Below are positions 6,148 to 59,372 of a stretch of DNA of 64,000 nt, in pieces. The DNA is from a virus (taxonomy: Duplodnaviria; Caudoviricetes): IMG/VR virus record IMGVR_UViG_2832702071_000001, positions 1 through 64,000 of that record, one strand, 5' to 3'. Both the position numbers and the translations under genes were made by a program. Positions within the stretch are counted from its first letter, which is position 1, and every line of letters starts with the position of its first letter. A model generated the notes under the pieces. The model was not told the origin of the DNA, ran no database searches, and worked only from the letters and a program-made list of their open reading frames with translations.

Positions 6148-6245
6148 CTCTCCTTTCCTTATGTAAACAGGAGTGAAAGAATTCTCACCCCTATTTAGTT
6201 TATATTTCTATATTAAATTATAATTATTAAATTGTCAAGATAAAA

Positions 6246-19053: not shown

Positions 19054-19060
19054 CTTTCAC

Positions 19061-21832: not shown

Positions 21833-21846
21833 TGTATCTCCTCCTT

Positions 21847-32551: not shown

Positions 32552-33505
32552 TCCGTTTCCTCCTATTTTCCATCCTACTCTAATATTTTTCGTGATCACA
32601 ATGCAATACAAATTGTATAAAGCTGATTAGTATTATCGCTAGATAATCCTAATGGGATTTAGTCTGTATGCTCCATAACTACTTTTAAATAATCCTTATA
32701 ATTCATCTTTTCTACCTCTTTTCCGACAACTTCTGATTCATTTTTAACACTGAAGAACCACCGATCACCTAACCACTGTGACCCTTTTGCATTATTCATC
32801 CCTAGTACATCCATTCTTTTAAAAGGATCGTTATTTTTTTCAACTTCTTTCAATATTTCACTAAAAATATCAAAATATTTAGATCGCTTTTTGAAAATAT
32901 AAACACCATTTTTATCAGAGTTCTTTTTCAACTCATCTTTGTATGCTTCGTAATCATCCGATTCTCCTTGAACACCAAAATGTTCATCGTGATAATAAGC
33001 AAATCCATTATCTTTGAAATAAGTAGAGTTAATTTTCTTAAAAAACTCTTTTCTTTTTCTTTCTCTCTCAATCGTATTTTTATACCACTTAGAATCTTGT
33101 TTTACTTCAAAAACTGGTGAATCTAATGTTTGCATTTTCAATTCCTCCTAAAATTGCTTAACTCATATTTTAATTGCCTTCTTCTTAAATTGTTATTTAT
33201 TTCGTACTTTTATATTAAATTATAATTATATTTTTGTCAAGATAAAAAGAATATTTTATTTTGTGTTATTTTGAGAATACTTATAAATTTCCTTCTTATA
33301 ATCCTCAATAATTTCTTCCCAATATTTAATATGCCATAGATGCAGGTTTAACTTAGTTGTTTTCTTGGTATACTTTGCCAACATCTTATAATAATTTAGA
33401 TTGTTTTCCATATTATCTAAAACTCTTCGCTGTAAATCACTCATCTTTCCTCTCATTTCTCACCAAACCTTATTAAATAATTTTTAATATAGGATACACC
33501 TTATA

Positions 33506-34084
33506 CTAAATTACTTGTAATTGCGTAAAGTCGATCTTCTTTCCTTTTTGAAATACAAAATGAGCGTATTCAATTGAGTCGGTCTTTCCGTTATCAGTAA
33601 AACTCATTCTTCGGTTATGTACAAAACAATATTTTGGCAGTCCGATCTCATTCCACAACTTCATTCTTTTCTTGTTACCAAAGAAGTTTAATCTTAACAG
33701 CATAATCACAAATCCTTCATTTTGAACGTCATTTAATGCTTTTCTAATAAATTGCTCGGCTAACAAAAATGGTGGATTACTTATAATTGCCCTAGGCTTT
33801 TTTGGCAATTTTGTCTCTAGATAATCGCATTTAAACTCTGCCAATGAATCCTCTCGAATATCAAAAGTATTTATATCCAATCCATCTACACCAACTTGTT
33901 TCAGTGCCTCTGGATAACTCATTAGATGATCTTTGTCACCACCTGAACATGGGTCAATAATTAATCCATCAAATGCATCCGGTTCATGTTTAATGAATTC
34001 TTTTAAAAAATCATCAATTTTCTCAATAGGTGTTACATAATAGTCTGAAACGTGTCTGTCATATCCTCTACTTGTACTACTCAA
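33506..34084 (-). CDS. Orphan amino (N6-adenine/N4-cytosine) DNA methyltransferase
   Basis: Motifs DYYVTP, IDPCSGG, ISNPPF, MLLRLNF. Confidence 0.8.
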   Translation of the reverse strand: MSSTSRGYDRHVSDYYVTPIEKIDDFLKEFIKHEPDAFDGLIIDPCSGGDKDHLMSYPEALKQVGVDGLDINTFDIREDSLAEFKCDYLETKLPKKPRAIISNPPFLLAEQFIRKALNDVQNEGFVIMLLRLNFFGNKKRMKLWNEIGLPKYCFVHNRRMSFTDNGKTDSIEYAHFVFQKGKKIDFTQLQVI

Positions 34085-37000
34085 TTAATCACTTCCTTAT
34101 GTTATAATTTTATTTATCAACCTGAATACTTTGATACTTCAATATAAGTTGTTTCACCACATTCATGACAGGCAAAATCCATTCCGTCAATGAAGTCAAC
34201 AATAATATCATTTTCACCTGTCATGTTACCTGTTCTAATTCACGTCCGCAGTTTGAACATTCGGTTTTAAATATTTGAATAATCATTTATTTTCCTCCTT
34301 TAATTAATTAAAATTCTTGTTTTATTTATCTACCACATCTTCATAGAATGCTATTTTTTGAATCAAGTGATTTCTATTTATATTATTAAAGTGATTAGCC
34401 GATAGCTCGATACCTTCAACCTCGTTAACTAGTTGCACTAGAGCAACTTGTAAGTATTCGATAGGACAATTAGGATTCTCCCAATAATTAACTCCCTCTT
34501 TAATCCATTCCATTTATTACCGTCCTTCCATTAAAATCTTGTTATTATCTTATATTGCTTAGCTGTGTTCTTTCTAATTGTTCTTGAAGTTGTTTACGTT
34601 CTTTGACAAACTCATCCTCAATTTCCTTTATTATTCTTATTTCACGACTTTGATCATGGTTGTCTAATCTCATTGATGCCGAGGTTAGTGCACTAATTTT
34701 ATTGTCTAATTCATTAATTTTGTCAAACGCTTGCATGACATTCACTTATAAAATCTCTCCTTCCGTTTAAATGTTACTTTTATAACAGCTCATCTTCGTA
34801 TTGGATTGAACCATTTTTATCGATATAGATACCTTTTTGCTTAACTAGATTTACGAATTTATCTTTAAAGATTATACCTGAATTAACTTCATCAAAAATT
34901 ATTTTTTGTGGACGGTTTCTCTCAATTAATTCAGCCAACACTTCAATTTGATCATCTAATGAACCTCGAACCGTTTTTTGCCCTAAATCTTTTCCATTTG
35001 CAATATCTAAACAACGAACCCTACTTTCCTCTCTTCCCCAATCAAAATAAAATACCTTCATTTAAATCTCCTCCTGATTTTTTATTTCCTTTTAAAATGC
35101 CATCATTATTTAATTACAACCCTCTATTTCTTAACGGTGTCTGTAGAAAGGTGTCTACAAGATATAACGATTTTTTAATTTGTTCACCTGTAAATAATGG
35201 GGCATTAATTGATTTAATACTAATTGTCCCATGATAATCTTCTTTTTTAGTGTAGGCATTAAACCACAATAACGGGTTAGCAAATGATGGATTTCCAATA
35301 GATACATTTTTGTCATCAGCATCCCAAACTGTTCCCAATCCTAATTTACCAAGCTCATCATATAATTTGTTTATGTCCATTTTATTTCCTCCTTTATTTA
35401 TATCAAATAAAATGTCACTTTTATTCATTTAATACTCTCTTCAGGTAGCCATACCTCTTTTCGTGTAATATTAACTTTTTTCTTGATTTCTTTATGATGC
35501 CATTCTCCACACCAATTGCATCTTCTTGTATTATTTACGTGTGTAAATCTATTTTTTGCACCCAACATCCAACCATTATGACTCCTATCAAAAATACATC
35601 TGCCGTCTCGCTCATAAGTTTCAAAAAACCAATCAGTTATATCTGTCAATTCCCAATTTGGCAATGCAAACCTATCAGATCTATTTCTGGTTAATATAGA
35701 ATCTACACTATGAAATGATCTTCCGTTTTTTAAACCTAATGGCAAGATAATAAGTTGTCTTGGATTTAAACTTTTATTTTTATCAAATTCTAAATACTTG
35801 CTATCGAACCATGAGTTGTGTACAAAATGTACCTCTAATTGATTTTTAACATACTTTCCTTCATCTCTATTTGAAATTATTTTGTGTAAAAATCTATATA
35901 AGTTCCAGCTATATTTATCTGACTCTCCTTTTGTTTTTGGTTTTATCCTTTTTATATCTATCATTTTTTACCTCCATTCTATTATAACGTCAATTTTATC
36001 TAGTCTTTTTTAAACATTTTTAAAATGTAATCATTGGCTTTATACAACTTTACATCTTCCTTTTTGGATACTTCACGCTTCAATGAATATAAATCATAAT
36101 AAGCAAGGAAGCTGTCTGATTGACCATCTAGACCCAATAATAATGTGTCTGTGCATACTCCATAATTCTTTTCAGTCGTGTCAAGATAAGCAACATTGTC
36201 AATTACGACAATATCACCGTATTCAATTTCTAAATCTTTAGCGTTATCAGTTATATGCAACTCCATTTAAATTCCTCCTTTCCGATGAAAGAAACATTTT
36301 ATTCTGTTAATCAACATCTGGTTGAAGCATACTGTTAAGTAATTGCTTAGACTCTTCTGCTAACTTATAATTTTTATTTGCTATATTAAATAAACGATTC
36401 GAATATTTTCCTATTTCTTGATTCAGTTTTATATTATTTAATTGTTTTCGTTCTACCTCATCTTCTAGTTGTCTAACGTAGTCAAATAAATTCAATAATG
36501 CATTTCTTTCCATATGTGCGCCCTCAGTTGTTTCAATATCTGTCATTAAGTCATGAATACCACTTGTGTCCCAATTATCCACTCAAATCATCTCTCCTCT
36601 ATTAAAATATAAGTTTTATCCTACAATTCTTTCAATGACCGCAATTATTACAACCACCCATAGCGAGAAACTACACTTATTTGCATCCATAATTCCTTGA
36701 TCTATATCACCTTTGAAGTCATCTATCCAAGTTTTAAAGTAGTAAATAACTGCTACCACTAAAAAAAGACCAAAATAATGTATTCAATATACTAGGATTA
36801 CCCGATTTTCTCATCTAGGTATGTAAATAATTCTTGCAATTCTTCTAATATCTCCGCTTTGTCTAAATCACTGTACGCATACACAATATCTGTAATTTGT
36901 TCTTGGTCGAGTGCATGATATTTATTTAATAATAATTGTAATTTTGTCATTTTTACCACCCTTTATATTATAATGTTATTTGTTAATACAAACTTTCTTC

Positions 37001-37948
37001 TTTATTTTCAGATCAATTTATATCATATCTTTTTCCTACTCTTGTATGATCTTATTAGACTAATGACCCATCAACTAACAAGGCTGTGTTCTCACATTCA
37101 AAAAACTCTTTCATAAATTCATTAAATGTAATATCCCTACCGTATTTGGAATTTGCCAGTTTCCAAAAAGCATATTCTCTTGTTACCAATTCTGGTTCTC
37201 CTTCAGATAAAACTTCTTCTGGGGTTTCTCCGCCTACTGTCTCAGAATAAACTTTTGCAGCATCATATACACAATCTCTCGTTAAATCTGTGCTAACTGT
37301 GATTAAACCATAATATTCTTGTTTACTAAATTCATAATATAATCTTACTTTCTTATTTATCATTTTTTTATTCCATCCTTTTTATATTATTTTATAAATT
37401 AAAACGAAGATTTTATTAATTACATTTCATATTCGATTTCTAAGTTAAACTCTTTTTGGCAATTGGGACACTTACAGTCATAAACTTCAACACACCAACC
37501 GTCTTCCTCGTATTCTCGTTTATGGTCATACACTCTATAAAAGTTTCTTTCGCTACAATGGGGGCATTTTTCAGACGTTGTTGTGTTTCCAGATGTAAAG
37601 CCTGTTGGATTGTCGTTATTGACAGCATAGATTGTTCTAACCTCCCCACAAAATTCTCCTTCAAATGGTACTACGAAAGTCATCTTATCACTTCCTTTAT
37701 AAGCTAAAATTTCCGGTTTATTTGATTATTTAAAACTTTTATTAATCTTTTTATGTGTTCTTCTGAAAATCAAACCTACAAACACGAACCAAATAATATA
37801 AATAGATACTGATATGATTGTCGGCAGCAACACTAACCACCAGCTCCAACTAATAATTCCAATAAGTTTTAATACAACAAATATAATAGTTAATGTTTCT
37901 AATACTCCCATTTTTCATTCTCCTTTTTTATCAGTTAAAATAAATGTT

Positions 37949-38305
37949 TTATTTAGTGTGAGTCCCTTCAACACCACGCTGTTCTCTACTCATTGTTCGC
38001 TTTCTTAACCATAATAATGCTTCCTCTAATTTTGTTATAGCCATTGAATTTTCTTTACACTTAAAATCAGACTGATTAAAATGCTCTAACCTTGAGATAA
38101 CCATAACAATCAGGTCTTCGTTCATTACACCATTAACGCCATATTCCTTAATAGCTCCTTCTTGAAAGTGAATTGTTTGTAATATCTCGTCATTGGCAGG
38201 CTGAACAACCTCAAAATAGTGTGGTGCATTAAATTGAAAATTTTCTTCATGATATACTTTTGTATATTTATTGATTAATAAATCGTGTTTTAATTCCTCC
38301 ATCAT
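37949..38305 (-). CDS. tad1: Tad1-like immune-signal sponge (Thoeris anti-defence 1)
   Basis: [13 protein letters not shown]...RLEHF...[31 protein letters not shown] matches the Tad1 family signature as I recall it. Confidence 0.85.
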
Positions 38306-39192
38306 CTTCTCCTTAATGTTTATCTTAAGTTATATATTTATATTAAATTATAATTATTAAAAAGTCAACAAATTACTCACCAATTAATAATCTATTTGGA
38401 TGGTATTTTTTAATCTTTTTATTTAAGAAGTCAGTATTTATAAAACCAGCGAACTTAACCATATCCTCATATGATGTAACCATAAACTCATCCCATTCGC
38501 CTGTTTTCTTCCAGTGATCGAATAGTAGTTGATGCTCTTTACTTTGATCTTCTATTAACGAAAATGAATTATCTAATTTAAACCCACTAGGAACATATTT
38601 AAACGTTTTAACAAGATCGACCAAACAGTCTTCGCATAAGTCAAAGCTCCATTGCTCCATATCAAAATTGCTATGATAACCAAATGATGTCGAAAACTCA
38701 TGAAACAAATCTAAATTATGATCTTTTTTTTCATTTTTGTATGCTTTCCCACACTTATTGCAGCTAATCATAGTCAACTCATCTTTATCAACCTTAACCT
38801 TTTTAAACTTTTTCACCATGTATTCCCCCTAGTGCGCTTTATAAGTTTTCATTTAAATAAACTAGTAGTTTTTCTAACTCATCAACTTTCTCTTTATCAG
38901 TTAAAACTGTGTCCATTTCTATAAGTTGTTTGTTTAGATTAAAACCTTCCGTGTGATAAAATTTATTCATTAATACTTCTAATTTAGTCATTCCAATTCC
39001 TCCTCTTGAATTTCATACATTATTTTCGCACTTATAATCTCATCTATATCTGTCTTTGAATTAATAAAATCCTGTGTAGATATATATTTACTATCAAACC
39101 TTAATCCCTCATATGTTTTCAAATACATCAATATTAGATGCTTATCTGTTTTTAGACTATCACCATATTTTTCAAATAGTGATTTAACATTT

Positions 39193-39501
39193 TCAATTGT
39201 CTTTTGCATATTCTTCTAAACTCTTAATAGCAAACTCAAGATATTTTTTAGCTTTTTTTAAGTCTGTCAATCCTTTATCTTGATGTTTTAGTGGCGCTCT
39301 TGATAGATATTTTATTGCATTACCTACACACATACCCAAATACCCATTATCATAATTTTTTGTAACCTCTTCGATCATCTCAATAGTTTCAAACTTACCA
39401 CTAGTATAGTGGTCAGGTGAATTAACCTCTTCTTTTTTATTAATAACGTTATCAACCGCTATTGATTGAAAATTCATATCTGTTTTATCTATTTTAAACA
39501 C
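39193..39501 (-). CDS. DUF3310 family protein
   Basis: VNSPDHY, GNAIKYLSRA..K, DLKKA..YL. Confidence 0.85.
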   Translation of the reverse strand: MFKIDKTDMNFQSIAVDNVINKKEEVNSPDHYTSGKFETIEMIEEVTKNYDNGYLGMCVGNAIKYLSRAPLKHQDKGLTDLKKAKKYLEFAIKSLEEYAKDN

Positions 39502-39507
39502 ACCTTT

Positions 39508-40149
39508 CTACTGAATAATTCTCAACTCTACTGTTTGGACACCAAAATTATATGCTTCATTTTTACTAGAAACCAATATATCTATATCATTCCCGTTTAT
39601 AGCCCCGCCAATGTCCATAGCCCTAGCCTTAAATCTTACGTCTTTATATCTAATTTCAACTAAGCTTCCCAATTTGATAAAGTTTGGGTCTACAGCAATA
39701 ACTCTATACCCATTTGGTGAATATATCGTGTTTCTTACATCCCAACCTTTATAATTCGTGTATCCAGTGCATCCTTTACAATTAGCCACGTAATTAGTAG
39801 CATTCATTGTTATCCAGCTATTACCTTCTTGTTCTTCTCTTATCTTTTCTTTCTTGATCTCCGCTTCTTTCTCTCTCTTTTCTTTCGCTGCTATAATTTC
39901 TTTTTCATTCGCTTTATAATAAACAGAAGGTTGCAACCTCACTGGAATCAATGGTTTTATATTTACATCATAATCATCCGTCTTCTTTCCATCTTCTAAA
40001 AGTCTATCAGCCATCTTAGAAAAAGAAGGGGAAAGGTATTTATCCTCTCCCCCATAAATTAAAATGCCAATAAAACTAGAAATGATTATGAGTGTTAAGA
40101 TAGAATAAAAGACGTTTTTTATTTTATTTTTATTTTCTTTTTTACTCAT
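39508..40149 (-). CDS. Membrane-anchored 3D-domain protein (YorM-like)
   Basis: N-terminal TM helix; IAVDP, DIGGAING..IDI. Confidence 0.85.
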   Translation of the reverse strand: MSKKENKNKIKNVFYSILTLIIISSFIGILIYGGEDKYLSPSFSKMADRLLEDGKKTDDYDVNIKPLIPVRLQPSVYYKANEKEIIAAKEKREKEAEIKKEKIREEQEGNSWITMNATNYVANCKGCTGYTNYKGWDVRNTIYSPNGYRVIAVDPNFIKLGSLVEIRYKDVRFKARAMDIGGAINGNDIDILVSSKNEAYNFGVQTVELRIIQ

Positions 40150-40161
40150 AAGACCTCCATT

Positions 40162-41298
40162 TTATTTAATTGATTTTGCAAATTCTAACGCTTTGGCTAA
40201 ATTATTTTCATCGACTGATTCTTTATATCCCATAGCGCTACCAAATAATTTATTAAATTCCTTAACTAACTCTTTTTGTTTCTTTATTTTTTTCAATCGG
40301 ATAATCTCGTTATCAATTTGCTCAACCAGCTCACCTGAAGATAATTTACTCTCTTCTTGTTCAGCAAATTCTTTTGTATTATCTTCACGTTTTTTAGCCT
40401 GATCTTTTTTGATATCCTCAACACTTTGTTTTGTCTTCTTAAGTTGTCCTTTTACTGCCTCTTCAAATACACGTAGGAAATTTTCGGCGCTATATGTTTC
40501 TTTGTCTGGCAGATTAGTAAATCGTCCTCCTGCAATCTCAATAAAGTTGCTAGGTCGGAAATACATATTAATTTCTGTTTCGTGGAAGTTGGATGCAACC
40601 TCTTTGTTTTTCTTGGTTTTCAAGTTTTCATCTAACTCGTTTCCATCTTTGTCAGTTACAACAACATCACCATACAGACAGCAAATCAAATCTGCTTGTG
40701 ATTTAAATATTTTTTGACCTGTCGTGTTCATCATTAATTCAACAGAGTTGTATTTTAATCCGTCAATTGTTGTTGTCTCTTTAACTTTAGTCCATGCTAA
40801 CCAAAAGAAACCGTAACCAGCATTTTTAAGTTTATCAATCTGTGTCCAAATTTCATCTTTCAGTGCAATCCATACATTTTCAGTATTAATATTTTCATTA
40901 TGCTCTTGAATTGATTCATATTGAACACCATATTTTTTATTCCATTTTTTGATTAGCCATTCGGATGCAGAATCAATCAGTTTATCTACGGTATCTACAC
41001 CGATAACTTTGGTAATACGACCATCTTTTGCCTCCTGAACTAAATCAGGAACAACTTCTGAGCGAAAGAATTCCCAACCCTTATTGTGCATATCAACAAC
41101 AGACTCTAACTCCCATGTGTTATAACCTTCTTCAAAAGCAAAAAGAGTGGCTGCATCTGGATCGTCAGGAAAAAATAACTCCATTACCTCTTTCCATAGT
41201 CGTGTTTTACCACTCTTGTAATCACCAGCTACCAATACGTTGTAATCTTGTAAATCTACTTTAGGAATGTTTTTCTTAACTGAACTTCTAAATCCCAT
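40162..41298 (-). CDS. AAA/RecA-like ATPase (YorG/Sak4-like)
   Basis: Walker A GDYKSGKT, Walker B GVDTVD; adjacent to the SSB-like gene. Confidence 0.75.
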   Translation of the reverse strand: MGFRSSVKKNIPKVDLQDYNVLVAGDYKSGKTRLWKEVMELFFPDDPDAATLFAFEEGYNTWELESVVDMHNKGWEFFRSEVVPDLVQEAKDGRITKVIGVDTVDKLIDSASEWLIKKWNKKYGVQYESIQEHNENINTENVWIALKDEIWTQIDKLKNAGYGFFWLAWTKVKETTTIDGLKYNSVELMMNTTGQKIFKSQADLICCLYGDVVVTDKDGNELDENLKTKKNKEVASNFHETEINMYFRPSNFIEIAGGRFTNLPDKETYSAENFLRVFEEAVKGQLKKTKQSVEDIKKDQAKKREDNTKEFAEQEESKLSSGELVEQIDNEIIRLKKIKKQKELVKEFNKLFGSAMGYKESVDENNLAKALEFAKSIK

Positions 41299-41334
41299 TG
41301 AATCTCTCCTTTTATATTAAATTATAATTATATA

Positions 41335-44420: not shown

Positions 44421-45164
44421 TTATAAAATATATTCTTCACCTTGCCTAACAAAATTACAATTATTGATTTTCTCCATCAGTTCTACATCTGTGTCATCCT
44501 GATAGTGCATCATATAAATCCTCTCCATCAATTCATGACCGTAATAAGATCTTATCTCATTAATAGAAGCGTGAACTGGATTACTCACAATAGAACAGTC
44601 ATGAAATATCATGGCAGTCTTATCATCTATATGCCAGATCAATCCTTTTTCATATATTTTTGCGATATCTCCTGTAAATAGGATAGAAGAATTATTAGGT
44701 TGGATCACTTTAAACCCAAATGACTTCATTCCTTTTGCGTGATAATGGTCTGTTCTTATTGTTACAATCTTGTATTTATCAATATTAAATCCTTCTTCGA
44801 TATTAAATAAGCAGACATTAAAATAGCTCAAAAGGGTAAATCCATCTGTTTCCAAACCTCGGTTTAATGATCTTCTAAATTCCCTATATTGATCTTCCCT
44901 TATCCACAAATTAGGCTTATGGTTTAATATGAATTTGCAACGCTGCCCAATTTCCTCCAATCCCCCTACATGATCTGAATGTAAGTGTGTAATAAGAATA
45001 TCCGTTATGCTATTTAATTCATAATCAGACTCTTTCAAACTATAACGAATTGTTGTTCCTGCATCAACTAACATTCTTCTTTCACCAAAATCAAAAATAT
45101 AATTATTATGATAATACTTTTCTGTAAAAGCACCACCCACACCTAATGCTGTAATCTTAATCAT
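44421..45164 (-). CDS. apyc1: Apyc1-like MBL-fold cNMP phosphodiesterase (anti-Pycsar)
   Basis: G.GGAF..KYYHNN, THLHSDHVGGLEE, FHDC..VHAS..E, MHY.D and C-terminal QG..YIL match Apyc1 as I recall it. Confidence 0.8.
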   Translation of the reverse strand: MIKITALGVGGAFTEKYYHNNYIFDFGERRMLVDAGTTIRYSLKESDYELNSITDILITHLHSDHVGGLEEIGQRCKFILNHKPNLWIREDQYREFRRSLNRGLETDGFTLLSYFNVCLFNIEEGFNIDKYKIVTIRTDHYHAKGMKSFGFKVIQPNNSSILFTGDIAKIYEKGLIWHIDDKTAMIFHDCSIVSNPVHASINEIRSYYGHELMERIYMMHYQDDTDVELMEKINNCNFVRQGEEYIL

Positions 45165-45982
45165 GCTACACGTCCTTTTTAAATAAAATTATGATTTTAT
45201 CTCAACCTGTAAATTAATCTTAACATGTGTAATATATAAAATCAACAACTTTTTATATTAAATTATAATTATTTTGTTTTCTAATGAGCAAACTCATTGT
45301 TAATTGTATACCCAGCCATCACCATCTGCCATATCGCTAAGTATAAGAGTTCTTATTTCATCATCATTGAACCATCTTAAATATTTATAATTATCATGGT
45401 ACTTTACTAAATGGTTATCACATAATAATTTTCTCCTATACATTTTCAATTCTTGTTTGCTATCTATTGAAATTATCTTTGGGTAACTAATTTTGTGAAA
45501 AATTGCTTTTGATTCTTTTTGTAGAGCTTCTTTATATCGCTTATTATGAACAACTAAGGGGATTTTGTGAAAAGCAGCTAACCTAATATAGTAAAAAGTC
45601 TTGCTATTTAACTTGTCACTGCTGTCTAAAAACATCTGTAATTGACCATCTATCATTTCATAATCCCCCCTTATTTTTGTTCATATACATAATTAACATT
45701 GCCAGTCAGATAAACAGTACCGTTCTCAACCCAACTAATAAACATGTCTAAATCACCAGAAATTACATTTCCGCTATCGTCTGTTAGCTGCATAACAATT
45801 TTTTGATTCATTAATTTTTCCTTTGAATTTAATTGATTGTAATTTTCAACTTCATTATTCAACTCTTCTGTTAATTGTCTAACAGACAACGCTTCTTTGC
45901 TCGCTTCTTCACCAAACTTCAGTTGAATATTTTTGCTCTTCATTTTTATCTCCTTGTTTTTAAATATATTGTTATATCTTGT

Positions 45983-46555: not shown

Positions 46556-46631
46556 TTTTACCTCCGCTTTCCTCTTGTTTTCTTTGATTTACTGCCCCAT
46601 TCTACTTAAATTTTCTAATAAAATCAGTATT

Positions 46632-47204
<573 letters not shown>

Positions 47205-49355
47205 TCAGTTACCGTTCAATCACAGCAGATACATCAAAAATATTAATTATGCCCTTATCCCATTCCAATACTTCATTGCCATTTTTCAAAGCTCTCTTGT
47301 AAGATTCGATTAGATTGTATTCTGTTTTAGCTGTTGTCATCAAGCCATATGTTCCCCAAATGTCATAATTTCTTTCTTTGATTTCCATTTAATTTCCTCC
47401 TATAAAACCAGAATTTCATCTCATATATTTTGCTGCACAAAAACCACCTATATACATTAATATTAATGGCACAAAATGAAACCATTCTAAATTTTTATTT
47501 ATTAATCCTACAATAAATCCAGCAGATAGCAGACAAATTCCACTAGTTAAAGAAAGTAGTTTATTTTGGTTTTCTTTCAGCATCTTTCTTAAATCAACGC
47601 TCATCATTCATGACACCTCTCACTCTAATAAAAAATATATTTTAACCAAAGTTCAACATTTGGTATTAATGTTTAATCTAATATATCCATCTGCATATTT
47701 GAGTTTAATTTGATTTCGGACTTCCATGCCATCGTTATCAGTGATCATAAGCCCTAGATTATTATATAATGAGTAACCTTCTTCTTTTAAAGCTTTGTGA
47801 ATCAACCTTTCTATAAATAAAGCTTCTGAGATCTCAGTTTTTTGATTATCTATTCTAATCACCCTTTTCTCCTTCTAATGAAGTTTTCGTTTTATTTTGA
47901 CACACAATCGTCTTTGACAACGACGAGTTTCTTATTGCCTCTTGTTAGTAAAAAATTTTCTAATCTATGTTCATAAATACTATACCAAACCATTTTTTTC
48001 TCATCGAGGCTATCAACACTCATTGTTGCATCACCATCATATATTAAGAAATTTAAAATTTGTTGAGTTGTATTACCTTTTCCTACCCCAAGGTCTCTTT
48101 CTGGTTTAAGATTAAATTCTTTCATTTTAATTTCCTCCTAATTTTATAATAGTTTTTCATTTTATTTGTTAGTTTGAATATCTTCTAATTTGCTCAACTC
48201 ATCAAAAAGATCCTTGCTAATTAGTTTCCAACTCATATCTCCATCAGTTCTAAGACCTATCGAATAGCTGTTCGTTATTGTATCATAAGCAACTTTAACA
48301 GCCCCGTTTTTGTTCTGCAAAACCTTTACACTTTTAAATTCAAGCATTTAATCCACTCCCCTTTCTGATAAAACATTCCTTTTATCGCATTATAATATCA
48401 TTTTTATTGCCTGTATTTTTCTATTTTTACGTCGAGACAACACTCTCCTACACACCATATTTCTGCATATATTTTAACAGTATGTTTATATGCGATCTTT
48501 TTATTTTTAGCCTTCACTATTCCGCCGAATAAATCACTACTACCTATCACATTTACACTTGTACGATATACATTCAACAACAGACCACCTTTTAATTTGT
48601 TGATTATCTTATACCTTTTATTATAATGTTATTTATGTCAACTGTTATTTTTATATTTTTCCTTTATTTCTTGCTTAGCCCTGATTCTTTCCCATTCCTT
48701 CTTGAAAACCAAATCCTCCTTGTCGCATTTTGGACAATAAATATAGCAAGCACGTTCAATTTCAATATATATTGGATCAGTTGTAATATATCCATCTTTC
48801 ACGTAATGCCAAATATGATTACAAGTATGTCTAGGTTTATTTTTGAAAATATTTAGTAAACCCACGCCCTCACTCCTTCCGTTAAAAGATCAGTTTTATT
48901 AAAGCTTTAAAAACCGCAGTGGACTATCAATTGACCTATTTGTTCTTTCAAATTGTTTTAGAAAGCTGTGAACTGATCTCATATCTTGATTAGATAGATC
49001 AATAAATTTAACATATTCTGGTTTCCCTTGAATTGAAATTATCGCCCAACTATGATTTTCGTAGTGGTTAATGTCTGCTGAAATATTGAATTGTTTCATC
49101 AGAATATTGTTTTCTTCGATTATTTTCTGATTTTGGTCTTGTAATTGATTCAATCTTGAGAATAATGTTGAGAATTTTTGTTCATTCCTAACGATGTCAT
49201 CCTGTCTTTTTTCTTTTAATTCAGTAATACCAATGTGTTTTTGAATTTTTAATTTAAACCATTCTATGATTTTCATGTTTTCTCCTTTAAATTTATAATT
49301 TTATATTAAATTATAATTATATATTTGTCAACAATAAAATGATCTTTTTATTTGG

Positions 49356-50630: not shown

Positions 50631-53581
50631 TTTATCTCCTCCATATATTTTTCTAATAAAATAGTTGTTTTATTATCAATTTTAATTAATTAAACTAACA
50701 AAAATTTTTATCTTTTTGCAAAACACGATCTACTATATTTATATACCTCTTTGGCTTAACCCAATAATACGTCACAACAACAAAATTGCCGTCATCATCA
50801 ACTTTATATATAACTTCTATATTTTTCAGTGTCTTCTTGTAACTGCCATGCGCTGCTATTCCATATTGACCCTTAGCTATCGTTTGAACAATCTTATATC
50901 TTGGTATTCTTGTTCTGTCTTTGCCGTCATATCTTGTGCCATTCTTATTATCATGAGCATGATATGTAAAAACCAATCTCTTGTCTACATATCTACAGTT
51001 ATACATTTCACCACCCCTCTTTCTATTAGTCCGACTTTCTCATTCTAATGTAATATCTTTTTCGCATACTCCCGTAATTTCGACTATCATATGTAGATGT
51101 AGATCCAAGAGGAGTATCGGTAATTTCTTTATATTTCCCCACTGCTTCCCAACCTCTCTTACTCAATTCCCAGATAGCTAAAGATAAATCACGCTTATTA
51201 CTTCTTTTTATAATCGTTTCCATACAACCACTCCCTTTTTATATTAAATTATAATTATATATTATAAAATTTTTAGCGATATTTCTTCGCTGCTGTTATA
51301 TTGCTTACCATTTATATTAAATTATAATTATAAATAAGTCAATAGAATAAAACAATCTTTTTATTTGTTTATCCTTCTTTTGTAAGCATTCCACAACAAA
51401 TCAATTAATTCAGATCCAGTATATTCAATGTTTTCTGCTGTTTTCACAGTCCATTCATCCTTAAATAAATGTCTGAGTATTGAAATACTATCTAATAATT
51501 CAATCAATTTGCCTATCGTCACCTTCTTATGATGGTATTTGTACCAATCCTCTCTTGGTACGATGTCATCGAACATATTATAAAATTGATCTTCCGTTAT
51601 TTCTTTTGCCCGCTTTGGTGTAATGTGCTGTTTCACTTTTAATTCTCCTTTTTATACATATCTTTCAACAATTTACTTTTAATTTCATTATACTCTTCAC
51701 TTGTAGCGCCAAATCTAAGTTGAATTTCTGCTTCACTGCTAAATTTATTTTCTCGTCTTGAATGTAAAAAATCAAAAATGCTTCTATAAATTACTGATTG
51801 CATCATTGGTGAAAATTTATTAACCCAGCCCTCATTTTCTCGATAATCTAATTTACCTCTGTATATTTCCTCTGAAGTATCGAAAGAAACATTTAATCCT
51901 GAACAATCAGTTGTTAATCCCCCTTCAAATAGTCCACATACCTTACAGACAGATAGTTCATGATCCTCATCCCAGACATGTTCCATATAATCAATCTACC
52001 TCCTCTAAACAATCAACTGAAAATCCACCGCTTTTACCTTTTAATAAAACAACCTTTTCACCATGTCCTAACTCCCACGGTTCACTTCTTGTAATCCACA
52101 CTTTATCGGGATTCTTTCTTGCTTCGTAGCAATTGATCATTTTTACCTTTGTTCCAATTTCCATTCTCTATCATCCTTTTCCATTAAAATTGTCATTTTA
52201 ATTCTTGTTATGAATATCACCAGACCAGACTCGTTCTTTGTTACAATTTACACATCTATGAAAACTTTTGTATATTCCTGCATGATAGCAAACATAATGG
52301 TGCAATCCTATTTTACACCATTTACCTTTGTTTACACTTCCTATATAAGCTAATTTCTTAATTGTTTTCGCATATTGCTTTGCTTCTTTCTTATCGGTAA
52401 ATTGAATACCTGTTCTTATTATTGAATTATTCTCATAAATAAAATACCGTTTCGAACTTCTGTCATATTTAACCTTCAATCTACTCAATCAACCACATCC
52501 TTTAAAGTGCGTCTTTTACTCGATATCAATCTCGTCTTTATATGAATCGTTTAATCTTGCAACATATTTATTTTTCTCGATATCCCAACTTATATAATAT
52601 TGGTCTTTTTCAAAATCACAGTATTCTTCTAACCTAACTAAATATGGATCATAAAATTCATCGCCAAAGTTTTCTAATATTATTCCAGTCTCTTGTGTTA
52701 CTTTTGTCATCTTTTCTAAAAATTCTTTCACTTGCTTTTCCATTTTAATACCTCCTCTAATTAGTAACGTTATACTCCTGTTTAATTTTTTGCTTAGTTT
52801 TAATTTTTTCCCACTCTTCTACATAAACTAATTTTTCTGTGTTACATTTAGGACAAAATACACAGCAACCTCTTTCTAATATTACGTATATCGGATCTTC
52901 TGTTATATAATCATCTTTGATATAATGCCAGTCATGTTCACATTTGTTTTTAGACTTTTTGAAAAACCCCAGCAATATTTATCACCTCCTGTTATTTTAA
53001 TCAGTTAAAAGGAAAATTTTATCTTAATATCATATTATTATTTTTGATCTTGTTCACAATTGTCGCCTTTCTAGATTCTCCACACCATGCATAAGGATAA
53101 GTGTTTTCAGAATCCTTACCCTTAACCTTATCTATAAAATCATTAAATGCTTCTCGATTAATTCTTTCCCAAAAGAATATTTTAGTAGACTCTGGTTGCT
53201 CATCAAATGATAAAGTTTCATCCTTAAAAGCATCAACACAAGTATCTATAATTCCATCATAAATTTTAAAACTTTCATGAGGATTATCATCACTAATCCA
53301 TTCTTGACCTATTTTTAATTCCAGTGATCTCACACCTTTCCTGTTATAGTTAATTATCTTAATTTATATCTTGCCATACCCCTATCAAATGCATCTTTTA
53401 GACTTATAGATCTAGGAAATTCTCTTTTTAACCATTCTTCAGACGGATAATATAAACTGTGTCGGTCATATGGTTGCGCCTCATCTTCAACAAATTCAAT
53501 ACTTCCTAAATACCATCCGGCAGCAGATTCCATTCTTACACGATTAATAATCAATCTTATACCTCCCATAAAAGAAACGTT

Positions 53582-54037
53582 TTATTGTATAAATTTAACC
53601 AAAGTAACCTCATAATCTTTAAAAGCACTGTCTATCAAGTCATAGACAATCTCCCAATCTCCTCCTGCTAAACCGCAACCTATACCATGTGGTAAAGCAA
53701 CACTTAAATTCAGAGATTTTGCCATTGATGATAACCTATTCAATGATTCACTAAGAGCTAAATAATCAGTCTGCTGCTTTTGAGTTCCTATTGATTCTTG
53801 ACCAAATAAATTGCTTACATATTTATTTTTATCGACAATTACAATTTGATGTTTGCCTAATAATTTGCGCTTTTCTATATGACTATCCACTAAACCTTTG
53901 TATTGCTCGAAAGCAATAGGATATTTATTTTTAATCTGTTTTGCTAAACCTGCACCCATAACACCGATACAATTAACTTGATGTCCAATGATATTTTTAT
54001 CTGTATTCAGAATATTACCTTCAACTATTTTTATCAT
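53582..54037 (-). CDS. Macrodomain protein (TARG1/DarG-like class)
   Basis: GNIL, HQVNCIGVMGAGLA, PHGIGCGLAGGDW. Confidence 0.88.
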   Translation of the reverse strand: MIKIVEGNILNTDKNIIGHQVNCIGVMGAGLAKQIKNKYPIAFEQYKGLVDSHIEKRKLLGKHQIVIVDKNKYVSNLFGQESIGTQKQQTDYLALSESLNRLSSMAKSLNLSVALPHGIGCGLAGGDWEIVYDLIDSAFKDYEVTLVKFIQ

Positions 54038-55134
54038 TTTATCATCTCCTTTAAAATGTGCATTTCAATCTAATATTAAAATATATACTCTACTTTTACT
54101 GGAATACTAATTGTATCTTTTACACCTGTTCCGAAACTAGCCTTAACTCCATACTCTGATTCTAGCTCGATATCACCTATAACATAATTTACATCTTTTA
54201 AGCTCATCAATTCTTCTTCTGAGATAGAGTCTTTGAAGTATAGATGCTTATTAATAAGAGGTAATAAAGCTTCACCTATAAGATTGGCAGTAAAAAGAAT
54301 TGTTCCATCATGTGTTGATTCTTTGATTATTTGGTGATGGAATTCTTTATTTGTACTTTTATCATATTCTATATGTCCTACTTCTAATCCTGATCCATAA
54401 CCACTGCTTTCTAATATTGATGAGATGTATTCCATGGGATTTATAATATCTATTTTACTCATTATTTTTTCTCCTTTTTAATTAATTAAAATCTGCATTT
54501 TACACTAGAACCCAGTTACCTTCCTTGATTGCTGATTCAACTTTTTCTTTTGTATATGTTAAAATGTCATCTGAATCAATGACATAGCAACTTTTATCGT
54601 AGTCCCATCTCCCCGTATGAATTTCTTCTTTATCTAACAATGGTATTATAAAAGTAAATTGCAAAGAATTCATTGTTCAATCTCCCTCTTTAATATAAAA
54701 TTCGTATTTTATTGAATTATATTGGATTCCATTTGTACCTTGTTTTCCGATAGATATCTAACATCTACAATCACCATGTCTAACTCTTCTGATGGAATAG
54801 ATAACCCATAATCAAATTGAAATATAAAAGACTTGTCAACTAAAGACTTTTTAAAAAGACTTAAAATTTCTCCATTGTTTTTGTCTTCATATATACTGTG
54901 GTTAAAATTAAGGCTGAATCCAATCACCATTTGATTTTCATTTTTATAAAAATTTGCATTACTAAAATACAAAGTAGGTAAACCTTTTTTGTTTTGCACA
55001 GTCTTTTCATAAACTATTACGTTCATTTATTTTATCACCATCCCATCGGTTAAAACCCATCTTTTAACGCATTTGCTTATTCCAGCTGTAATGTCATTCT
55101 GATACTAAGATTTCTTTATATTTTATTAATCATA

Positions 55135-55530
55135 TTAAACTACTACTAAACATTTAGTCTTCATAAACTCTTCATAGTCCATATCACCCTTATCTTCATT
55201 ACATTTGGCGCAACTACACACTAGGTTGAAAGGAGTAGAGCATCCCCCTTTAGATTTTGGAGTTTTGTGGTCTATTGTGTCTCCATATCCGCCACAATAA
55301 TGACATGTATAGTTATCTCTTTTTTTTATATATTTTTTCATCTGTTTATTGCTTCTAAACTTCTCAACAGTATGATCATCTATAACCCTACAACTACCTT
55401 CTCTTACATGTATCAACGCCTTTTCATAAGACAAAAAACTTATAAATCTATGTTTGTTCTTAGTGCTGGACTTAACAACCACCACACCATCCTCGTTTGG
55501 TTTTAAATGTTTTAATTTTACTTTAACCAC
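55135..55530 (-). CDS. HNH endonuclease
   Basis: RDNYTCHYCG..TIDH..PKSKGG...NLVCSCAKCN. Confidence 0.9.
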   Translation of the reverse strand: MVKVKLKHLKPNEDGVVVVKSSTKNKHRFISFLSYEKALIHVREGSCRVIDDHTVEKFRSNKQMKKYIKKRDNYTCHYCGGYGDTIDHKTPKSKGGCSTPFNLVCSCAKCNEDKGDMDYEEFMKTKCLVVV

Positions 55531-58138
55531 CTTCTTTTCATAATAATCCTACTAAAACTCATATTTCATTCTATATTTTTCAAATTATCTTTATGAATAA
55601 ACCATCCATAATTAGGTACTAACAACGTACCATCTTCTAGCTCGCATTTGTGAGCATCTTCAAATTCAAAAGAAAAATTAACTGCTACCATCCCATCGTC
55701 TAATATATCTGAAACGACCTCCCCATGATCTCCTTTTTGTAGAAATGAACCATCTGGATTGTCAATCAAAACTTCCACTATACATCCCTTTTTAACTATT
55801 CTATTTGTCAATCTTATTCATCCCTTTCTCAATGAAAGTCACATTTTAATCAATTGCTACCTCTTTTGCTATACTGATAATCTCTTTCATTTCGTCTTTT
55901 GGAATCTCATTAAAGTAAACATCATGGAAATCCTCTTTGACAAACTCATTAATTTTATTTTTTAAACTTACAAATTCAAAATCTTTTTCAATAATTTCTC
56001 CTTTAAAAACCAGCTCAACAACATCACAACCTAACATGCTAATAAACCCCAGTGATTTCTTGACATCGCTGTTATAGTTCTTTAATCTATAGGCTACCGT
56101 TTTGTCTTCGCCTGTGAAAAATTTTACATAATACACGCCTATCTTCCTTTCTCAATGAAATCATTCTTTTATTCAATGAATTGCTAACCTATTATTTACA
56201 TGACCACATATTTTGCATTTTTTCTCATGTGTAAACCACCCATGATCTATTTTTACCAATTCATACTCGTGTTTGTGATCACTTTTCTTTGAAGATTTAC
56301 TCATTAATATTCACTCCTAGATAACTCTTTAAATATTTTATATCTTTTTCAACATTTTTAATTTGGTTATCAATAATTTTTTGTGCTAATTCAAAATCAA
56401 CTATCTTTTCATGAGCCATATCTGATACATTTCTAATTAGCTGCGCTTTGTCATTAATATTTCTTGAAAAATCTACTATAGAGTTAATTTGTAGTTTACT
56501 TGGTGACAATTTATTGTTAATCTTATCTCGTTCCTCAAATACATTATCAATCACTTTAGACCATTTCTCAATATGATTCCTATTACTCTTTGTCATCATC
56601 ATTACCTCCTAAAATATCCGAAAATAGATCTTCTAACTCAATTTTCCTATTATTAATATAAAATCCAGCCCTATCTGCTGTCGCTTTAGTTACCTTTAGT
56701 CCATTTTCTTCAGCTATTCTTCTTATTCTGTCTTCCGATAAATCCCAGCTCAAATTATCAACTCCTGTTATGATAAAATTCATGCTTTATTCCTTATCAT
56801 CCCAACTACAATTGTCTCCAATAAATTCCCATATCCAATCTTTAAAATCCTCTTCAATTTCATCGTCCGTTGTTTCTTCCTCGTATTCAAATTCTTCTGT
56901 AATTTCGTCTCCCCATCCTCTTTGAAACCTAAATATGACTGATCTCATATTAATTCCTCCTATAAAATTGATATTTTAACTCAATAGCTTCTTTCTGGAC
57001 AAATGTTTTTCCAATCCATTTCAATAATATTTCCTTTATCATCTGTCACCCATTCATCTGTATAGAAACACCTACTCATCACTCTCTTAATATCATCTAG
57101 CGTATCAAATTTAGTTGAATGTGGAATGCCTCTATCTTGCGACCATCCTGTAGGCTTCCAATGCAAATTGTAATGCTTACTCATCTAATTCCTCCCAATG
57201 ACCGTCAATATTTTCAGTAACCCAATCCTTATAATATTCTTCGACAACCTCTTCTTTCTCCATTTCATCTAATCCCTCAAGAAAATTGTCCGCGATCTCA
57301 ACTTCCTCCTCTACTTTTGACCCAACATAACGTGTACTTACTGTAAATAAGAATTTTGCCACTTACATTCCTTCCTTTCCAACAAATTTATTATTTTAAT
57401 CTATAGCTTAGCAGCTAACTCGTATACCAACTCTTTAATTTTAGCCGATTTGTTTTGCTCCTCATTGATCATATCAATAACTTTGCTCAATTCCTTTTCT
57501 AAGTCAGACCCACTCTCAGCATGTTCTCGTAAAATCATCATCATATTTTGCTGAATCCGTGAAAAATCAACTTTTTCAACATTATTAGTTTCCATTATTA
57601 AATTCTCCTTTTATAATTATTTTTTAAACTGCTAAATGGTTGATTGAGAATATTTTGTTGCCTTTGACATAATATTCAATTATATCTCCTGATGGTTTGT
57701 ATTCCGTTTCTTCGAGTTTATATCCTTTCTTCAACAATTCTTTTATCTTTTTGTTATATCTCAACCCATCTTCGTCTGTGTAGCCAACTATGAGATCTTC
57801 TCTAATGATATTTAAATGCATTTTAGTTCCTCTTCCAACTCATCTATCTCTTTTTGAACATTTTCTTTTGTCAATTTTATCACCCTCTTTTTTTATTTAA
57901 TCCCTTGAATATTTATTCTTCTTCATAATGTTCTTCTTCAAGCCTTTGATCCATTTGTTTTGTCATTTCCTTTGTAATCTTGTTATCTCTTTCCCACTCA
58001 ACCAATTCTAAATAAACATTTGCATTGTCAATTATCCCATCTTCATTTGCCATTCTCTCTAAAATATCACTATATTCCTTATATTGTTTTTCATTATACA
58101 ATTTCTTCATTTTAATCACTCCTAACAAATTTATTATC

Positions 58139-58729
58139 TCACAACTTCTTTATTTCTTCCCACACTACCTTTATGGCATTTTGCTTGTCTTCGTCTGCTT
58201 CTGCTATCTCAAGCAACCAACCCTCTGACACAAGCCTGAGTAAGTCAATATCCTTGTTGTTACTAACACCTTTTTTTGTTCCAAGTAAATCATCTAATGA
58301 CACGTCAAAATAATCCGCCAAAATAACCAATGAATTCAGATTTGGTTCTCTACCACCAATTTCGTATTTTGAGTAACCCGACCTGCTTATGTTAATTATT
58401 TTTGATAAATCATCCATTGTTTTTTTCTTATTTTTTCTTAATAATCTTAACTTCTTCCCAAATTCTGTTTGAGCCCTTTCTGAAACTTCTTTTTCGTCTA
58501 CGTGATAAGAAAAATCATCGTCGGTCTTTGTCAGCCATCGACTATCTACGTCAAAAATTTCTGCCAATTTGTCTAGTTGCTCAGGAGTTGGTCTTGCATA
58601 GCCTGTTTCATAATTTGTTATAGTTGTTCTTGTTACTCCTGCCTTCATAGCTAATTGTGATTGAGTTAGCGCCTTTGTGTGACGTAAATATTTTATTTTT
58701 TTTGCCAATACTCTGTCTGTCATTATCAA
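58139..58729 (-). CDS. XRE-family regulator with two HTH domains
   Basis: LTQSQLA..GVTRTTITNYETG and TMDDLS..ISRSGYSKYEIG. Confidence 0.9.
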   Translation of the reverse strand: MIMTDRVLAKKIKYLRHTKALTQSQLAMKAGVTRTTITNYETGYARPTPEQLDKLAEIFDVDSRWLTKTDDDFSYHVDEKEVSERAQTEFGKKLRLLRKNKKKTMDDLSKIINISRSGYSKYEIGGREPNLNSLVILADYFDVSLDDLLGTKKGVSNNKDIDLLRLVSEGWLLEIAEADEDKQNAIKVVWEEIKKL

Positions 58730-59372
58730 ACAACTCCCGCTATAAAATGTTTATTTTAACCTATACTTTAAAACTCTACCCCGATGATTTTTCATCTCTA
58801 AATAAATTGAATCAAAGTCTAATATATTTTTAACCTCATCGACTTTAATTGTTCTTGTTAGATTTAATTCAAAAATTGTTTTTGGTGGGGTATTTATTAT
58901 GTTTATATCATCGATTCCATAGGAAATTTTCCCATTTCTTTCGGTAGATTTGTCATATAACTTATCTTTTAACAATAATTCTTTATTCTTATAGATGCAT
59001 AAAGATAAGTCACGAAAAACTTTAGGTACTTCGGAACTATTGTATACTTCTAATGTCGTTTGAATTTGAATCTCACTTGCTTTGTTCTTTTCCGCTGCTC
59101 CTAGCTTTTGGTATGATCCCCATCCTTCGTCAACATTATTTCGGAACTCTAAATCAAACAATCTAACATATATTCTCAAGCTACCAACATTCTTTAGCAA
59201 CTGAGATGATGTAAGTGTTACAACAACTCCTAACAATGTTCCTATGATGGATTGATACTCTAAAAAAACTTCCTTTAACTGATCCACACCCTTTATCCCC
59301 TTTGTAATAAGATAAAACATATATTTTATTGATTAATTCTATTTTAAATTATAATTATATAGAAGTCAATAA

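Follow-up and report, generated by a model that had tools for sequence, protein, structure and literature searches.

TAAAA-N6-TTTTA sites of SPbeta-like phages as probable, individually addressed joints for gene exchange

Described systems of dispersed sites

How unrelated genes are swapped cleanly at gene boundaries is a long-standing question, which is usually answered by rare illegitimate events together with selection or by homology of neighbouring genes. The present study concerns a short repeated element, TAAAA-N6-TTTTA, which consists of two inverted 5-bp arms around a 6-bp centre, in a stretch of 64,000 nucleotides of viral DNA (in the following, the window). The window represents positions 1-64,000, the early arm, of a 115,935-bp SPbeta-like provirus record (IMG/VR record IMGVR_UViG_2832702071_000001; in the following, the source phage). 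An earlier reading of the sequence, here called the original prediction, had taken the element for the border of integron-like gene cassettes. Our analysis suggests that the sites are probably fixed, individually addressed joints for gene exchange between phages. The closest described system is that of the pdif sites and dif modules of Acinetobacter plasmids, in which many dispersed Xer-type sites border adaptive genes and are believed to carry modules from one replicon to another (Mindlin et al. 2019, PMC6449649). Similarly, the TAAAA element would represent dispersed Xer-type sites in the accessory regions of a mobile replicon. However, pdif sites are copies of the host dif and presumably depend on the host XerC/XerD, whereas the TAAAA arms are phage-specific and not enriched in host-type chromosomes. 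Furthermore, pdif modules are bounded on both sides, whereas exchanges at TAAAA sites mostly show a site at one end, and the TAAAA sites differ by their fixed order and position-specific centres.

In the difH/XerH and difSL/XerS systems, each of the two inverted arms, about 10-11 bp long, has an A-tract at the end that faces the central exchange region (PMC5357621). Their overall length of about 28 bp is that of the extended dyad of the SPbeta sites described below, and in both cases A-tracts lie next to the centre. In contrast, difH and difSL are single chromosomal dimer-resolution sites adjoining the recombinase gene, while the TAAAA site is present in 30-45 copies per phage genome, with centres that all differ and with recombinases that are candidates only. 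Heterospecific lox and FRT sites have identical arms and differing asymmetric spacers; only matched spacers recombine, and a segment between unlike sites is exchanged without deletion. The TAAAA sites likewise combine the same arms with differing asymmetric spacers, but the lox/FRT systems are an engineered use of Cre and Flp with 13-bp arms and 8-bp spacers, and spacer matching at TAAAA sites would be a presumed property.

The closest precedent in phages is provided by the promoter-early stem-loop (PeSL) cassettes of T4-type phages, promoter-plus-terminator units which recombine by homology and yield mini-circles (Arbiol et al. 2010, PMC2839356). Both are repeated intergenic elements, PeSL cassettes lying in hyperplastic early regions, with modular replacement between relatives. 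The TAAAA copies, in contrast, share ten bases only and have neither promoter hexamers nor a stable stem-loop, the promoters being separate and alongside, and their exchange appears to take place between equivalent positions and not between neighbours. In integrons, an attC site follows each small, often promoterless accessory gene of a co-directional array, and the system comprises the integrase IntI, an attI-Pc head and attC folded as a single strand. The TAAAA element shares the position after small accessory genes in a co-directional array, but the source phage lacks an IntI-type integrase, an attI-Pc head and a folded attC, and the order of the sites is fixed. The stoperators of mycobacteriophage L5, about 30 short intergenic sites which often touch stop codons, have an asymmetric sequence that follows the direction of transcription, and they are targets of the immunity repressor. 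They resemble the TAAAA sites as many short sites in short gaps throughout the genome that often touch stop codons; the latter, however, are dyad-symmetric, and the repressor of the phage family binds another box. This box, SPBRE, is a known repeat of SPbeta-like phages, in which it serves as operator for MrpR/YopR/SroF, a repressor with a recombinase fold (PMC10516654); a monomer of SroF binds an asymmetric box of 26 bp (bioRxiv 10.1101/2025.11.27.690993, section 5). SPBRE resembles the TAAAA element as a cis-acting repeat of these phages; it was discovered through an in-silico search for repeats, and its ligand is a recombinase-fold protein. It differs from the TAAAA element in sequence, and it is asymmetric, located inside about ten promoters, bound by a monomer and no hot spot for breakpoints.

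Our literature search found no paper describing TAAAA-N6-TTTTA, although an earlier mention in the 1999 SPbeta genome paper or in supplements is possible. Carriers of the motif include the model phage SPbeta and several further groups of large Bacillales phages, and a short, strictly conserved, phage-specific site with a position-specific centre is found to coincide with mosaic gene boundaries. Should recombination indeed take place at this site, ordered module exchange would have a directly testable mechanism, and genome engineering could draw on dozens of natural, mutually orthogonal sites. If, in addition, the sites are addressed, they would be nature's equivalent of recombinase-mediated cassette exchange and would give the old 'linker' idea of modular phage evolution a molecular footing. 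Should the element be a regulatory landmark instead, a well-studied model phage would still contain a regulon-scale element that has gone undescribed.

Copy number, placement and symmetry of the site

The window contains 33 exact copies of TAAAA-N6-TTTTA, whereas dinucleotide shuffles gave a mean of 1.65 and a maximum of 6 copies, and 0 of 100 shuffles reached 33. All other spacer lengths between 0 and 14 gave 0-4 copies each in the window. In the whole 115,935-bp genome, 45 copies with N6 compare with 1-4 for each of the remaining spacers among N3-N9. An enrichment over composition-matched shuffles, as implied by the original prediction, was therefore found, and it was found for N6 alone. In an unbiased scan of all inverted pairs of 5-mers, TAAAA/TTTTA was in the top two, the other top pair being part of a promoter box. 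All 29 exact sites listed originally were recovered, and four were added to them (3205, 35408, 40106 and 59313). Among the 16 near-matches listed, 12 stood as one-mismatch sites at gene junctions, while the remaining four (35093, 47185, 47879 and 57383) carry two mismatches. The one-mismatch class as such is not enriched, with 62 copies for N6 versus 43-67 for other spacers genome-wide and 25 versus 8-26 in intergenic positions. A single symmetric variant, TGAAA/TTTCA, makes up 8 of the 25 intergenic one-mismatch N6 sites. The copies in the window are as follows, with positions relative to genes based on our own crude calls of open reading frames (ORFs); RBS denotes a ribosome-binding site.

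2960..2975, exact site, 16 nt past a stop codon
3205..3220, exact match within the DnaE-like polymerase gene, probably chance
6241..6256, exact site, adjoining a downstream TTGACA promoter with an SPBRE-like box
9230..9245, exact site, 10 nt past a stop
11488..11503, exact site, 15 nt past a stop; an SPBRE-like box comes next
13161..13176, exact site, 9 nt past a stop
13587..13602, exact site between a promoter and the following RBS, 20 nt to the start
24396..24411, exact site, start codon 23 nt on
25324..25339, exact match overlapping doubtful small ORFs, status uncertain
33243..33258, exact site, arm forms a TAA stop; TTGACA promoter directly downstream
34309..34324, exact site, arm forms a TAA stop
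35408..35423, exact site, 1 nt past a stop; absent from the original list
36603..36618, exact site, 20 nt ahead of a start; overlaps a doubtful small ORF
37400..37415, exact site, 4 nt past a stop
37936..37951, exact site, arm forms a TAA stop
40106..40121, exact match in the 5' part of ORF 39508-40149, probably chance
45184..45199, exact site, 19 nt ahead of a start
46619..46634, exact site, arm forms a TAA stop
47629..47644, exact site, 8 nt past a stop
48369..48384, exact site, 19 nt past a stop
48883..48898, exact site, immediately next to a stop codon
49335..49350, exact site, 5 nt past a stop; TTGACA promoter directly downstream
50657..50672, exact site, 26 nt ahead of a start
51348..51363, exact site, arm forms a TAA stop; upstream of a TTGACT promoter
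52185..52200, exact site, arm forms a TAA stop
53006..53021, exact site, arm forms a TAA stop
53569..53584, exact site, arm forms the TAA stop of a macro-domain gene
54487..54502, exact site, arm forms a TAA stop
54696..54711, exact site, arm forms a TAA stop
55051..55066, exact site, 24 nt ahead of a start
56963..56978, exact site, 2 nt past a stop and 14 nt ahead of a start
58743..58758, exact site, 13 nt ahead of a start
59313..59328, exact site, preceded by the promoter that lies downstream of the MrpR-like gene and followed by the next RBS; absent from the original list
47403..47418, one-mismatch variant TGAAA-N6-TTTTA, giving a TGA stop; others at 25165, 54052 and 55553
36286, 55833 and 56156, mirror one-mismatch variant TTTCA

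The proposed location at gene junctions applies to 29 of the 33 exact copies, which lie outside called genes, and an arm does supply the TAA stop codon of the upstream gene in 10 of these 29 intergenic sites. The distance to the upstream stop is at most 10 nt in 18 of the 29, and in 17 the end of the core is followed by the next start codon after 13-30 nt, so that the site is located just ahead of the RBS. Four sites (6241, 33243, 49335 and 51348) abut the -35 element of a promoter. As had also been noted, the core operons are devoid of sites, with 0 in the nrd and replication blocks and none in 16001-24000 or between 25324 and 33243. The sites of SPbeta display the same stop-site-RBS arrangement as those of the source phage. 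In SPbeta, symmetric base preferences extend from -5 to +22 around the 16-mer, corresponding to a dyad of about 11+6+11 bp. The geometry of a tyrosine-recombinase site that the original prediction had invoked, with two inverted arms of about 11 bp and a 6-bp centre, is accordingly present in the SPbeta dyad. In the source genome, the outer arm is weaker than that of SPbeta and offset by 1 bp; the flanks are symmetric, with A ahead of the core, T/A behind it and a further T...A pair outside, and these preferences extend into the last codons of the upstream gene.

The sites share conservation of sequence and not of structure. No excess of base-pairing over the marginals was found past the five A-T pairs, either outward or within the spacer, and no compensatory arm variants were found. 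The 24-nt RNA around each site has a median minimum free energy (MFE) of -1.1 kcal/mol, and no Rfam family matches the element. Because additional pairing and compensatory variants are lacking, folding is feeble and the flanks are symmetric, we conclude from the sequence that the element is probably recognized on double-stranded DNA by something symmetric. An identity as an RNA hairpin was rejected on the lack of covariation, the folding energy and the lack of an Rfam match.

The distribution of the motif was determined in further phages and in chromosomes by counting exact sites and, as a control, the same pattern read backwards.

SPbeta, 34 sites and 2 control matches; shuffle expectation 2.35
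phi3T, 30 and 2
Goe11, 34 and 1
Goe14, 31 and 2
SPR, 35 and 0
Mammaliicoccus phi127, 37 and 3
Tsamsa, 23 and 3
FADO, 33 and 1
Geobacillus E3, 30 and 7
Staphylococcus SPbeta-like phage, 17 and 8 (weak)
Lactococcus phiL47, 7 and 3 (weak)
phiNIT1, 1 and 1
pW4, 2 and 1
Flasso, 0 and 0
Bacillales chromosome 1, 51 and 79
Bacillales chromosome 2, 51 and 64
Bacillales chromosome 3, 8 and 16

The enrichment is common to SPbeta and eight other large Bacillales siphophages, and no enrichment occurred in the three host-type Bacillales chromosomes or in the three control phages phiNIT1, pW4 and Flasso. Six mutually distant carriers each exhibit an enrichment specific for N6, with 61%-91% of the sites being intergenic although about 88-90% of each genome is coding. 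The motif thus appears to be a phage-specific family trait. A site for a host factor, which would be frequent in host genomes, was rejected for the three Bacillales chromosomes tested.

Breakpoints, addresses and candidate readers

Since the searched collections yielded no near relative of the source phage, the coincidence of sites with breakpoints was determined in the SPbeta clade. Five whole genomes were compared all-against-all by BLAST, and unique ends of high-scoring segment pairs (HSPs) were taken as breakpoints. The original prediction had proposed, as a check in relatives, to see whether gain and loss breakpoints fall inside the spacer; in the clade, 118 of 733 HSP ends are located at most 20 nt from a core, compared to 10.4 expected. 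Match starts peak 1-10 nt ahead of the core and match ends 0-9 nt behind it. Among co-directional junctions, 64 of 96 bearing a site have a breakpoint, versus 146 of 643 without a site (odds ratio 6.8, p 4e-17), and restriction to the early arm, with each genome taken separately and junctions matched for length, gave odds ratios of 4.7-16. A breakpoint is found near 90 of 164 sites, but near only 6 of 54 SPBRE cores and 23 of 200 AAGGAGG words. The claim that the sites are recombination junctions was thus borne out in the sampled relatives of the SPbeta clade, though not in the source phage itself.

Site-anchored alignments revealed that homology ends at the edge of the 16-mer and that the spacer is identical between the partners. 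In a hand count from these alignments, 20 of 22 partner pairs sharing one flank had identical centres at the breakpoint. A single 16-mer may join differing left and right modules across phages, for example in the combinations A/X, A/Y, B/Y and B/Z at one site. Altogether, 40 of 52 distinct 16-mers are present in at least two of the five genomes. Of these 40, as classified by ungapped comparison of the flanks with crude gene calls, 9 have one type of left and one type of right neighbour, and 19 have at least two types on both sides, including recombinant combinations. The other four genomes share 22, 26, 24 and 23 16-mers with SPbeta, with 0, 0, 0 and 1 breaks in order; the single break would be explained by a permuted record. 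Each site of the clade has thus retained a spacer of its own and its place in a collinear series, with variable modules on either side. The 193 non-redundant replaced segments between collinear matches comprise 3 with a site at both ends, 37 with a site at one end and 153 with a site at neither; the yoqD slot in Goe11 compared with Goe14 is an example of the first class. The sites are hot spots and not general cassette borders.

The composition of the centres is unusual as well. None of 202 centres from the six distant carriers is palindromic, compared to 5.8 expected (P 0.003), whereas centres in which two of three positions are complementary are not depleted (45 versus 37). Repeats of a centre within a genome, in either orientation, number 0 versus 4.3 under a positional null (P 0.015) or 5.2 under a half-shuffle null (P 0.0065). 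The spacers hence look selected. Asymmetric and non-repeated centres fit a recombination site, since there polarity must be fixed and internal deletions must be avoided, and an operator has no such need.

Taken as a whole, these data are best explained by double-stranded-DNA sites which serve as position-specific, addressed crossover points in the manner of dif or lox, and we assign this reading a probability of roughly one half. A symmetric protein would read the two invariant 5-bp arms inside the weaker dyad of about 11 bp, and the 6-bp centre, asymmetric and unlike at every position, would serve as the address. An encounter of two related phages or prophages would permit crossover at sites whose centres agree, and the product would combine the left portion of the first genome with the right portion of the second; modules would be replaced in this way without gene order being scrambled. 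The likeliest chemistry would be that of an Xer-like tyrosine recombinase requiring matched centres, as for dif/pdif or heterospecific lox. The binding of a protein, the involvement and identity of a recombinase, the need for matched centres and the role in the source phage are what we infer here. More tentatively, it might be speculated that SPbeta-like phages, tyroviruses and their kin generally carry 25-45 such heterospecific sites, at which an Xer-like recombinase or a centre-cutting nuclease exchanges only DNA of the same address, and that co-resident phages would thereby swap accessory modules frequently with their order kept.

The original prediction had also suggested looking for a tyrosine recombinase elsewhere in the genome, and two genes with a Phage_integrase domain were indeed identified outside the window.

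Genome 77215-78252, 345-aa Phage_integrase-domain protein with an intact R-K-HxxR-H-Y set
Genome 96598-97605, plus strand, YomM-type recombinase, with its stop codon inside a TAAAA site at genome position 97603

For the 345-aa recombinase no counterpart was detectable in SPbeta at E 1e-5, and a sequence search of the PDB returned no match. Homologues of YomM are present in 192 phage records, among them every motif carrier tested and, besides these, phiL47 and pW4. For the tyrovirus orthologue of YomM, the structural-module recombinase gp50, a putative attP with 11-bp inverted repeats around a 6-bp core has been described just past the stop codon (PMC9703825). This putative attP shares the 11+6+11 plan with the sites studied here and resides in phages that also carry TAAAA-N6-TTTTA (23 copies in Tsamsa, 33 in FADO); it differs in being single-copy and in its TAATC/GATTA arms in Tsamsa and FADO. 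In SPbeta the TAATC/GATTA element is absent from the corresponding position, and in the source genome a TAAAA site is found in its place. SPbeta YopP carries an HxxK change, the same as that of YomM described below.

A number of observations weigh against addressed recombination at the sites. With respect to the reader, the best-conserved recombinase, YomM, has the motif HxxK, with Lys replacing the second catalytic Arg, both in the source phage and in SPbeta. In Tsamsa and FADO, a single-copy 11-6-11 repeat with ...TAATC-N6-GATTA... arms is located just past the stop of the gp50/YomM-type gene, and since the orthologue has this differing site of its own there, YomM is weakened as a reader of the dispersed sites. 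A presence/absence profile of six motif-bearing and three motif-poor phages gave no exclusive DNA-binding candidate, the exclusive genes being those of the portal region only. With respect to the site, only ten positions are invariant and the outer arms are degenerate. With respect to the breakpoints, the five SPbeta-clade genomes are related, and the counts are therefore not independent events; moreover, a conserved island beside unrelated DNA by itself ends BLAST matches at the edge of the island. As 153 of the 193 replaced segments have no site at an end, most mosaicism arises elsewhere. Laboratory hybrids of phi3Ts and SPbeta (MT366946-8, PP526179) were compared with both parents by painting, and every true switch lay within an identical block of 1.4-18 kb; switches of this kind are explained by ordinary homologous recombination and are not placeable at a site. 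The edges of the identical blocks in these hybrids again coincide with sites. Across families, homologues of site-adjacent genes were not significantly more often site-adjacent in distant phages (4 of 26 versus 8 of 107, p 0.25). Finally, a role in recombination is attributed to the sites of the source phage by analogy with its relatives, its own genome providing no breakpoint evidence.

Rival readings and genome context

The alternative that survives best, although we regard it as unlikely, is that the sites are operators or landmarks of a dimeric DNA-binding protein, such as a roadblock that would suppress read-through in the lysogen in the manner of mycobacteriophage stoperators, a factor for anti-termination or insulation, or an organiser of the nucleoid. 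Breakpoints would then coincide with the sites because the conserved island of 16-28 bp is all the homology remaining between unrelated neighbours, and relaxed homologous recombination, for example by a Sak4-like annealing protein, would occasionally use it. A 5+6+5 dyad with strict arms suits many helix-turn-helix dimers, and the location just ahead of the RBS or, in four promoters, directly ahead of the -35 element would be a plausible one for such a protein. MrpR provides a recombinase fold turned repressor in the same phage family (PMC10516654; bioRxiv 10.1101/2025.11.27.690993). The predominance of replacements without sites and the homology-based switches of the laboratory hybrids would likewise be in line with operators. 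However, SPBRE boxes are longer and more alike than the TAAAA sites and yet are far less often associated with breakpoints (6 of 54 versus 90 of 164). An operator also leaves unexplained why each position conserves its centre amid changing neighbours on both sides, and why centres are never palindromic and never repeated.

Improbable, in our estimation, is a phage nuclease that cuts within N6 and leaves site-specific overhangs, which would be religated or used by an annealing protein, resulting in the same addressed exchange by way of breaks. The unique asymmetric centres and the exact coincidence with breakpoints suit a nuclease as well as a recombinase, and the SPbeta annotation includes a ligase-like gene, a RecJ-like exonuclease and a Sak4-like annealing protein. 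Nevertheless, the presence/absence profile yielded no candidate nuclease, and cutting a genome at 30-45 places would be hazardous.

We consider it quite improbable that the window harbours an integron-like platform of one- or two-gene cassettes, each bounded by two sites, excised as circles and reinserted at other sites. Such a platform would be in accord with the sites that follow most small genes in 33-59 kb, with the three replaced segments in relatives that have a site at both ends, and with the mini-circles formed between repeated PeSL elements in T4-type phages (PMC2839356). Yet the part of the original prediction according to which cassettes are inserted, excised and shuffled between neighbouring sites was not supported: the order of sites is collinear in the relatives, a site at either end is a feature of no more than 3 of the 193 segments, and the source genome contains no cassette duplications, its sole pair of paralogues being unrelated to the sites. 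In addition, neighbouring sites have unlike centres, the pairing and folding tests gave no folded site of the attC type, and mobility between positions was not seen in the SPbeta-clade relatives. The head of the array is occupied by the gene at 59388-60485, the homologue of an MrpR-type repressor, instead of an IntI-type integrase, the two Phage_integrase-domain genes being located away from it at 77.2-78.3 and 96.6-97.6 kb. That the element functions at the RNA level, whether through processing, through a hairpin to which a protein binds or through a translation signal between cistrons, is highly improbable: although the element is situated between stop codon and next RBS, is often part of the stop and occurs mainly within long co-directional gene arrays, its stem consists of five A-U pairs of the low stability given above, with no covariation, compensatory variants or Rfam match, its symmetric flank preferences would make no sense in RNA, and some sites are upstream of promoters and hence outside the downstream transcript.

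An identity of TAAAA-N6-TTTTA with SPBRE, the operator of MrpR, was rejected as well. The ten target regions named in PMC10516654, which had been obtained by chromatin affinity purification sequencing (ChAP-seq), were extracted from the SPbeta record; 9 of the 10 contain a AATATGTATA-type box between -35 and -10, and TAAAA-N6-TTTTA is nearby in only 3 of the 10, so that the bound regions share the former and not the latter. The source genome has a second repeat, (T)AATTATAATTTAATATA, which is likely its counterpart of SPBRE and separate from the TAAAA motif. It occurs as 26 exact 17-mers in both arms of the genome, always co-oriented with transcription.

33211..33230, minus strand, (T)AATTATAATTTAATATA between -35 and -10
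6209-6228, 13614-13633, 49302-49321, 51313-51332 and 59340-59359, further copies in the window
Genome 78-108 kb, plus strand, further copies

Early-arm copies are usually located 17 nt downstream of TTGACA, while late-arm copies lack a -35 element and are positioned directly ahead of ribosome-binding sites; the latter might serve the YonO-type polymerase instead.

The genes of the source phage point leftward to about 79 kb of the genome and rightward beyond. DnaE-like polymerase, nrdE/F and nrdD are encoded in the window, and further features of the record are the following.

Window 1..1515, minus strand, large serine recombinase (SprA-like integrase), truncated by the window edge
Window 59388-60485, minus strand, MrpR/SroF-type repressor homologue with a tyrosine-recombinase fold, matching MrpR_N_CB
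Window 61393-62529, AimR homologue
Beyond the window, YonO-type RNA polymerase with 54% identity to its SPbeta counterpart
Beyond the window, the YomM-type recombinase with 60% identity to its SPbeta counterpart

By its sequence, the product of 59388-60485 belongs to the repressor family and is not any integron integrase. The source phage itself appears to be a distant SPbeta-like phage, SPbeta matches being found by tblastn for only 29 of the 206 genes of the provirus, as counted with crude gene calls. In a megablast search, the region 45-56 kb gave 0 matches in the phage collection, and a search in distant mode gave only fragments with 2-6% query coverage each. Across viral contigs, the 23-mer promoter box returned 1 match, which was unrelated, and a 394-aa protein returned 0; the 20-mer box gave 52 matches across genome contigs, all of them single and attributable to chance, and a search for homologues of the MrpR-like protein returned itself only.

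Most genes of the dense array at 33-59 kb have no detectable homologue in the eight phages compared, and the few that match each point to different phages (Tsamsa, FADO, E3, pW4, Flasso and SPbeta). Such scattered best matches are as expected for a horizontally assembled accessory region. The small gene at 31703-32092 (minus strand) shares 73% protein identity with a gene of Tsamsa, far above the genome-wide level of similarity, which points to a recent transfer between phage groups that are only distantly related. An intein with a LAGLIDADG domain splits the gene of a C5 cytosine methyltransferase at window 25537-27462 (minus strand). An intergenic stretch of about 100 nt at window 56190-56290 has 84% identity to the B. 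cereus phage pW4 and 77% to phage Thrax1, and a 43-aa ORF called at 56173-56304 has a 66% match to FADO; this stretch could be a small conserved gene or RNA.

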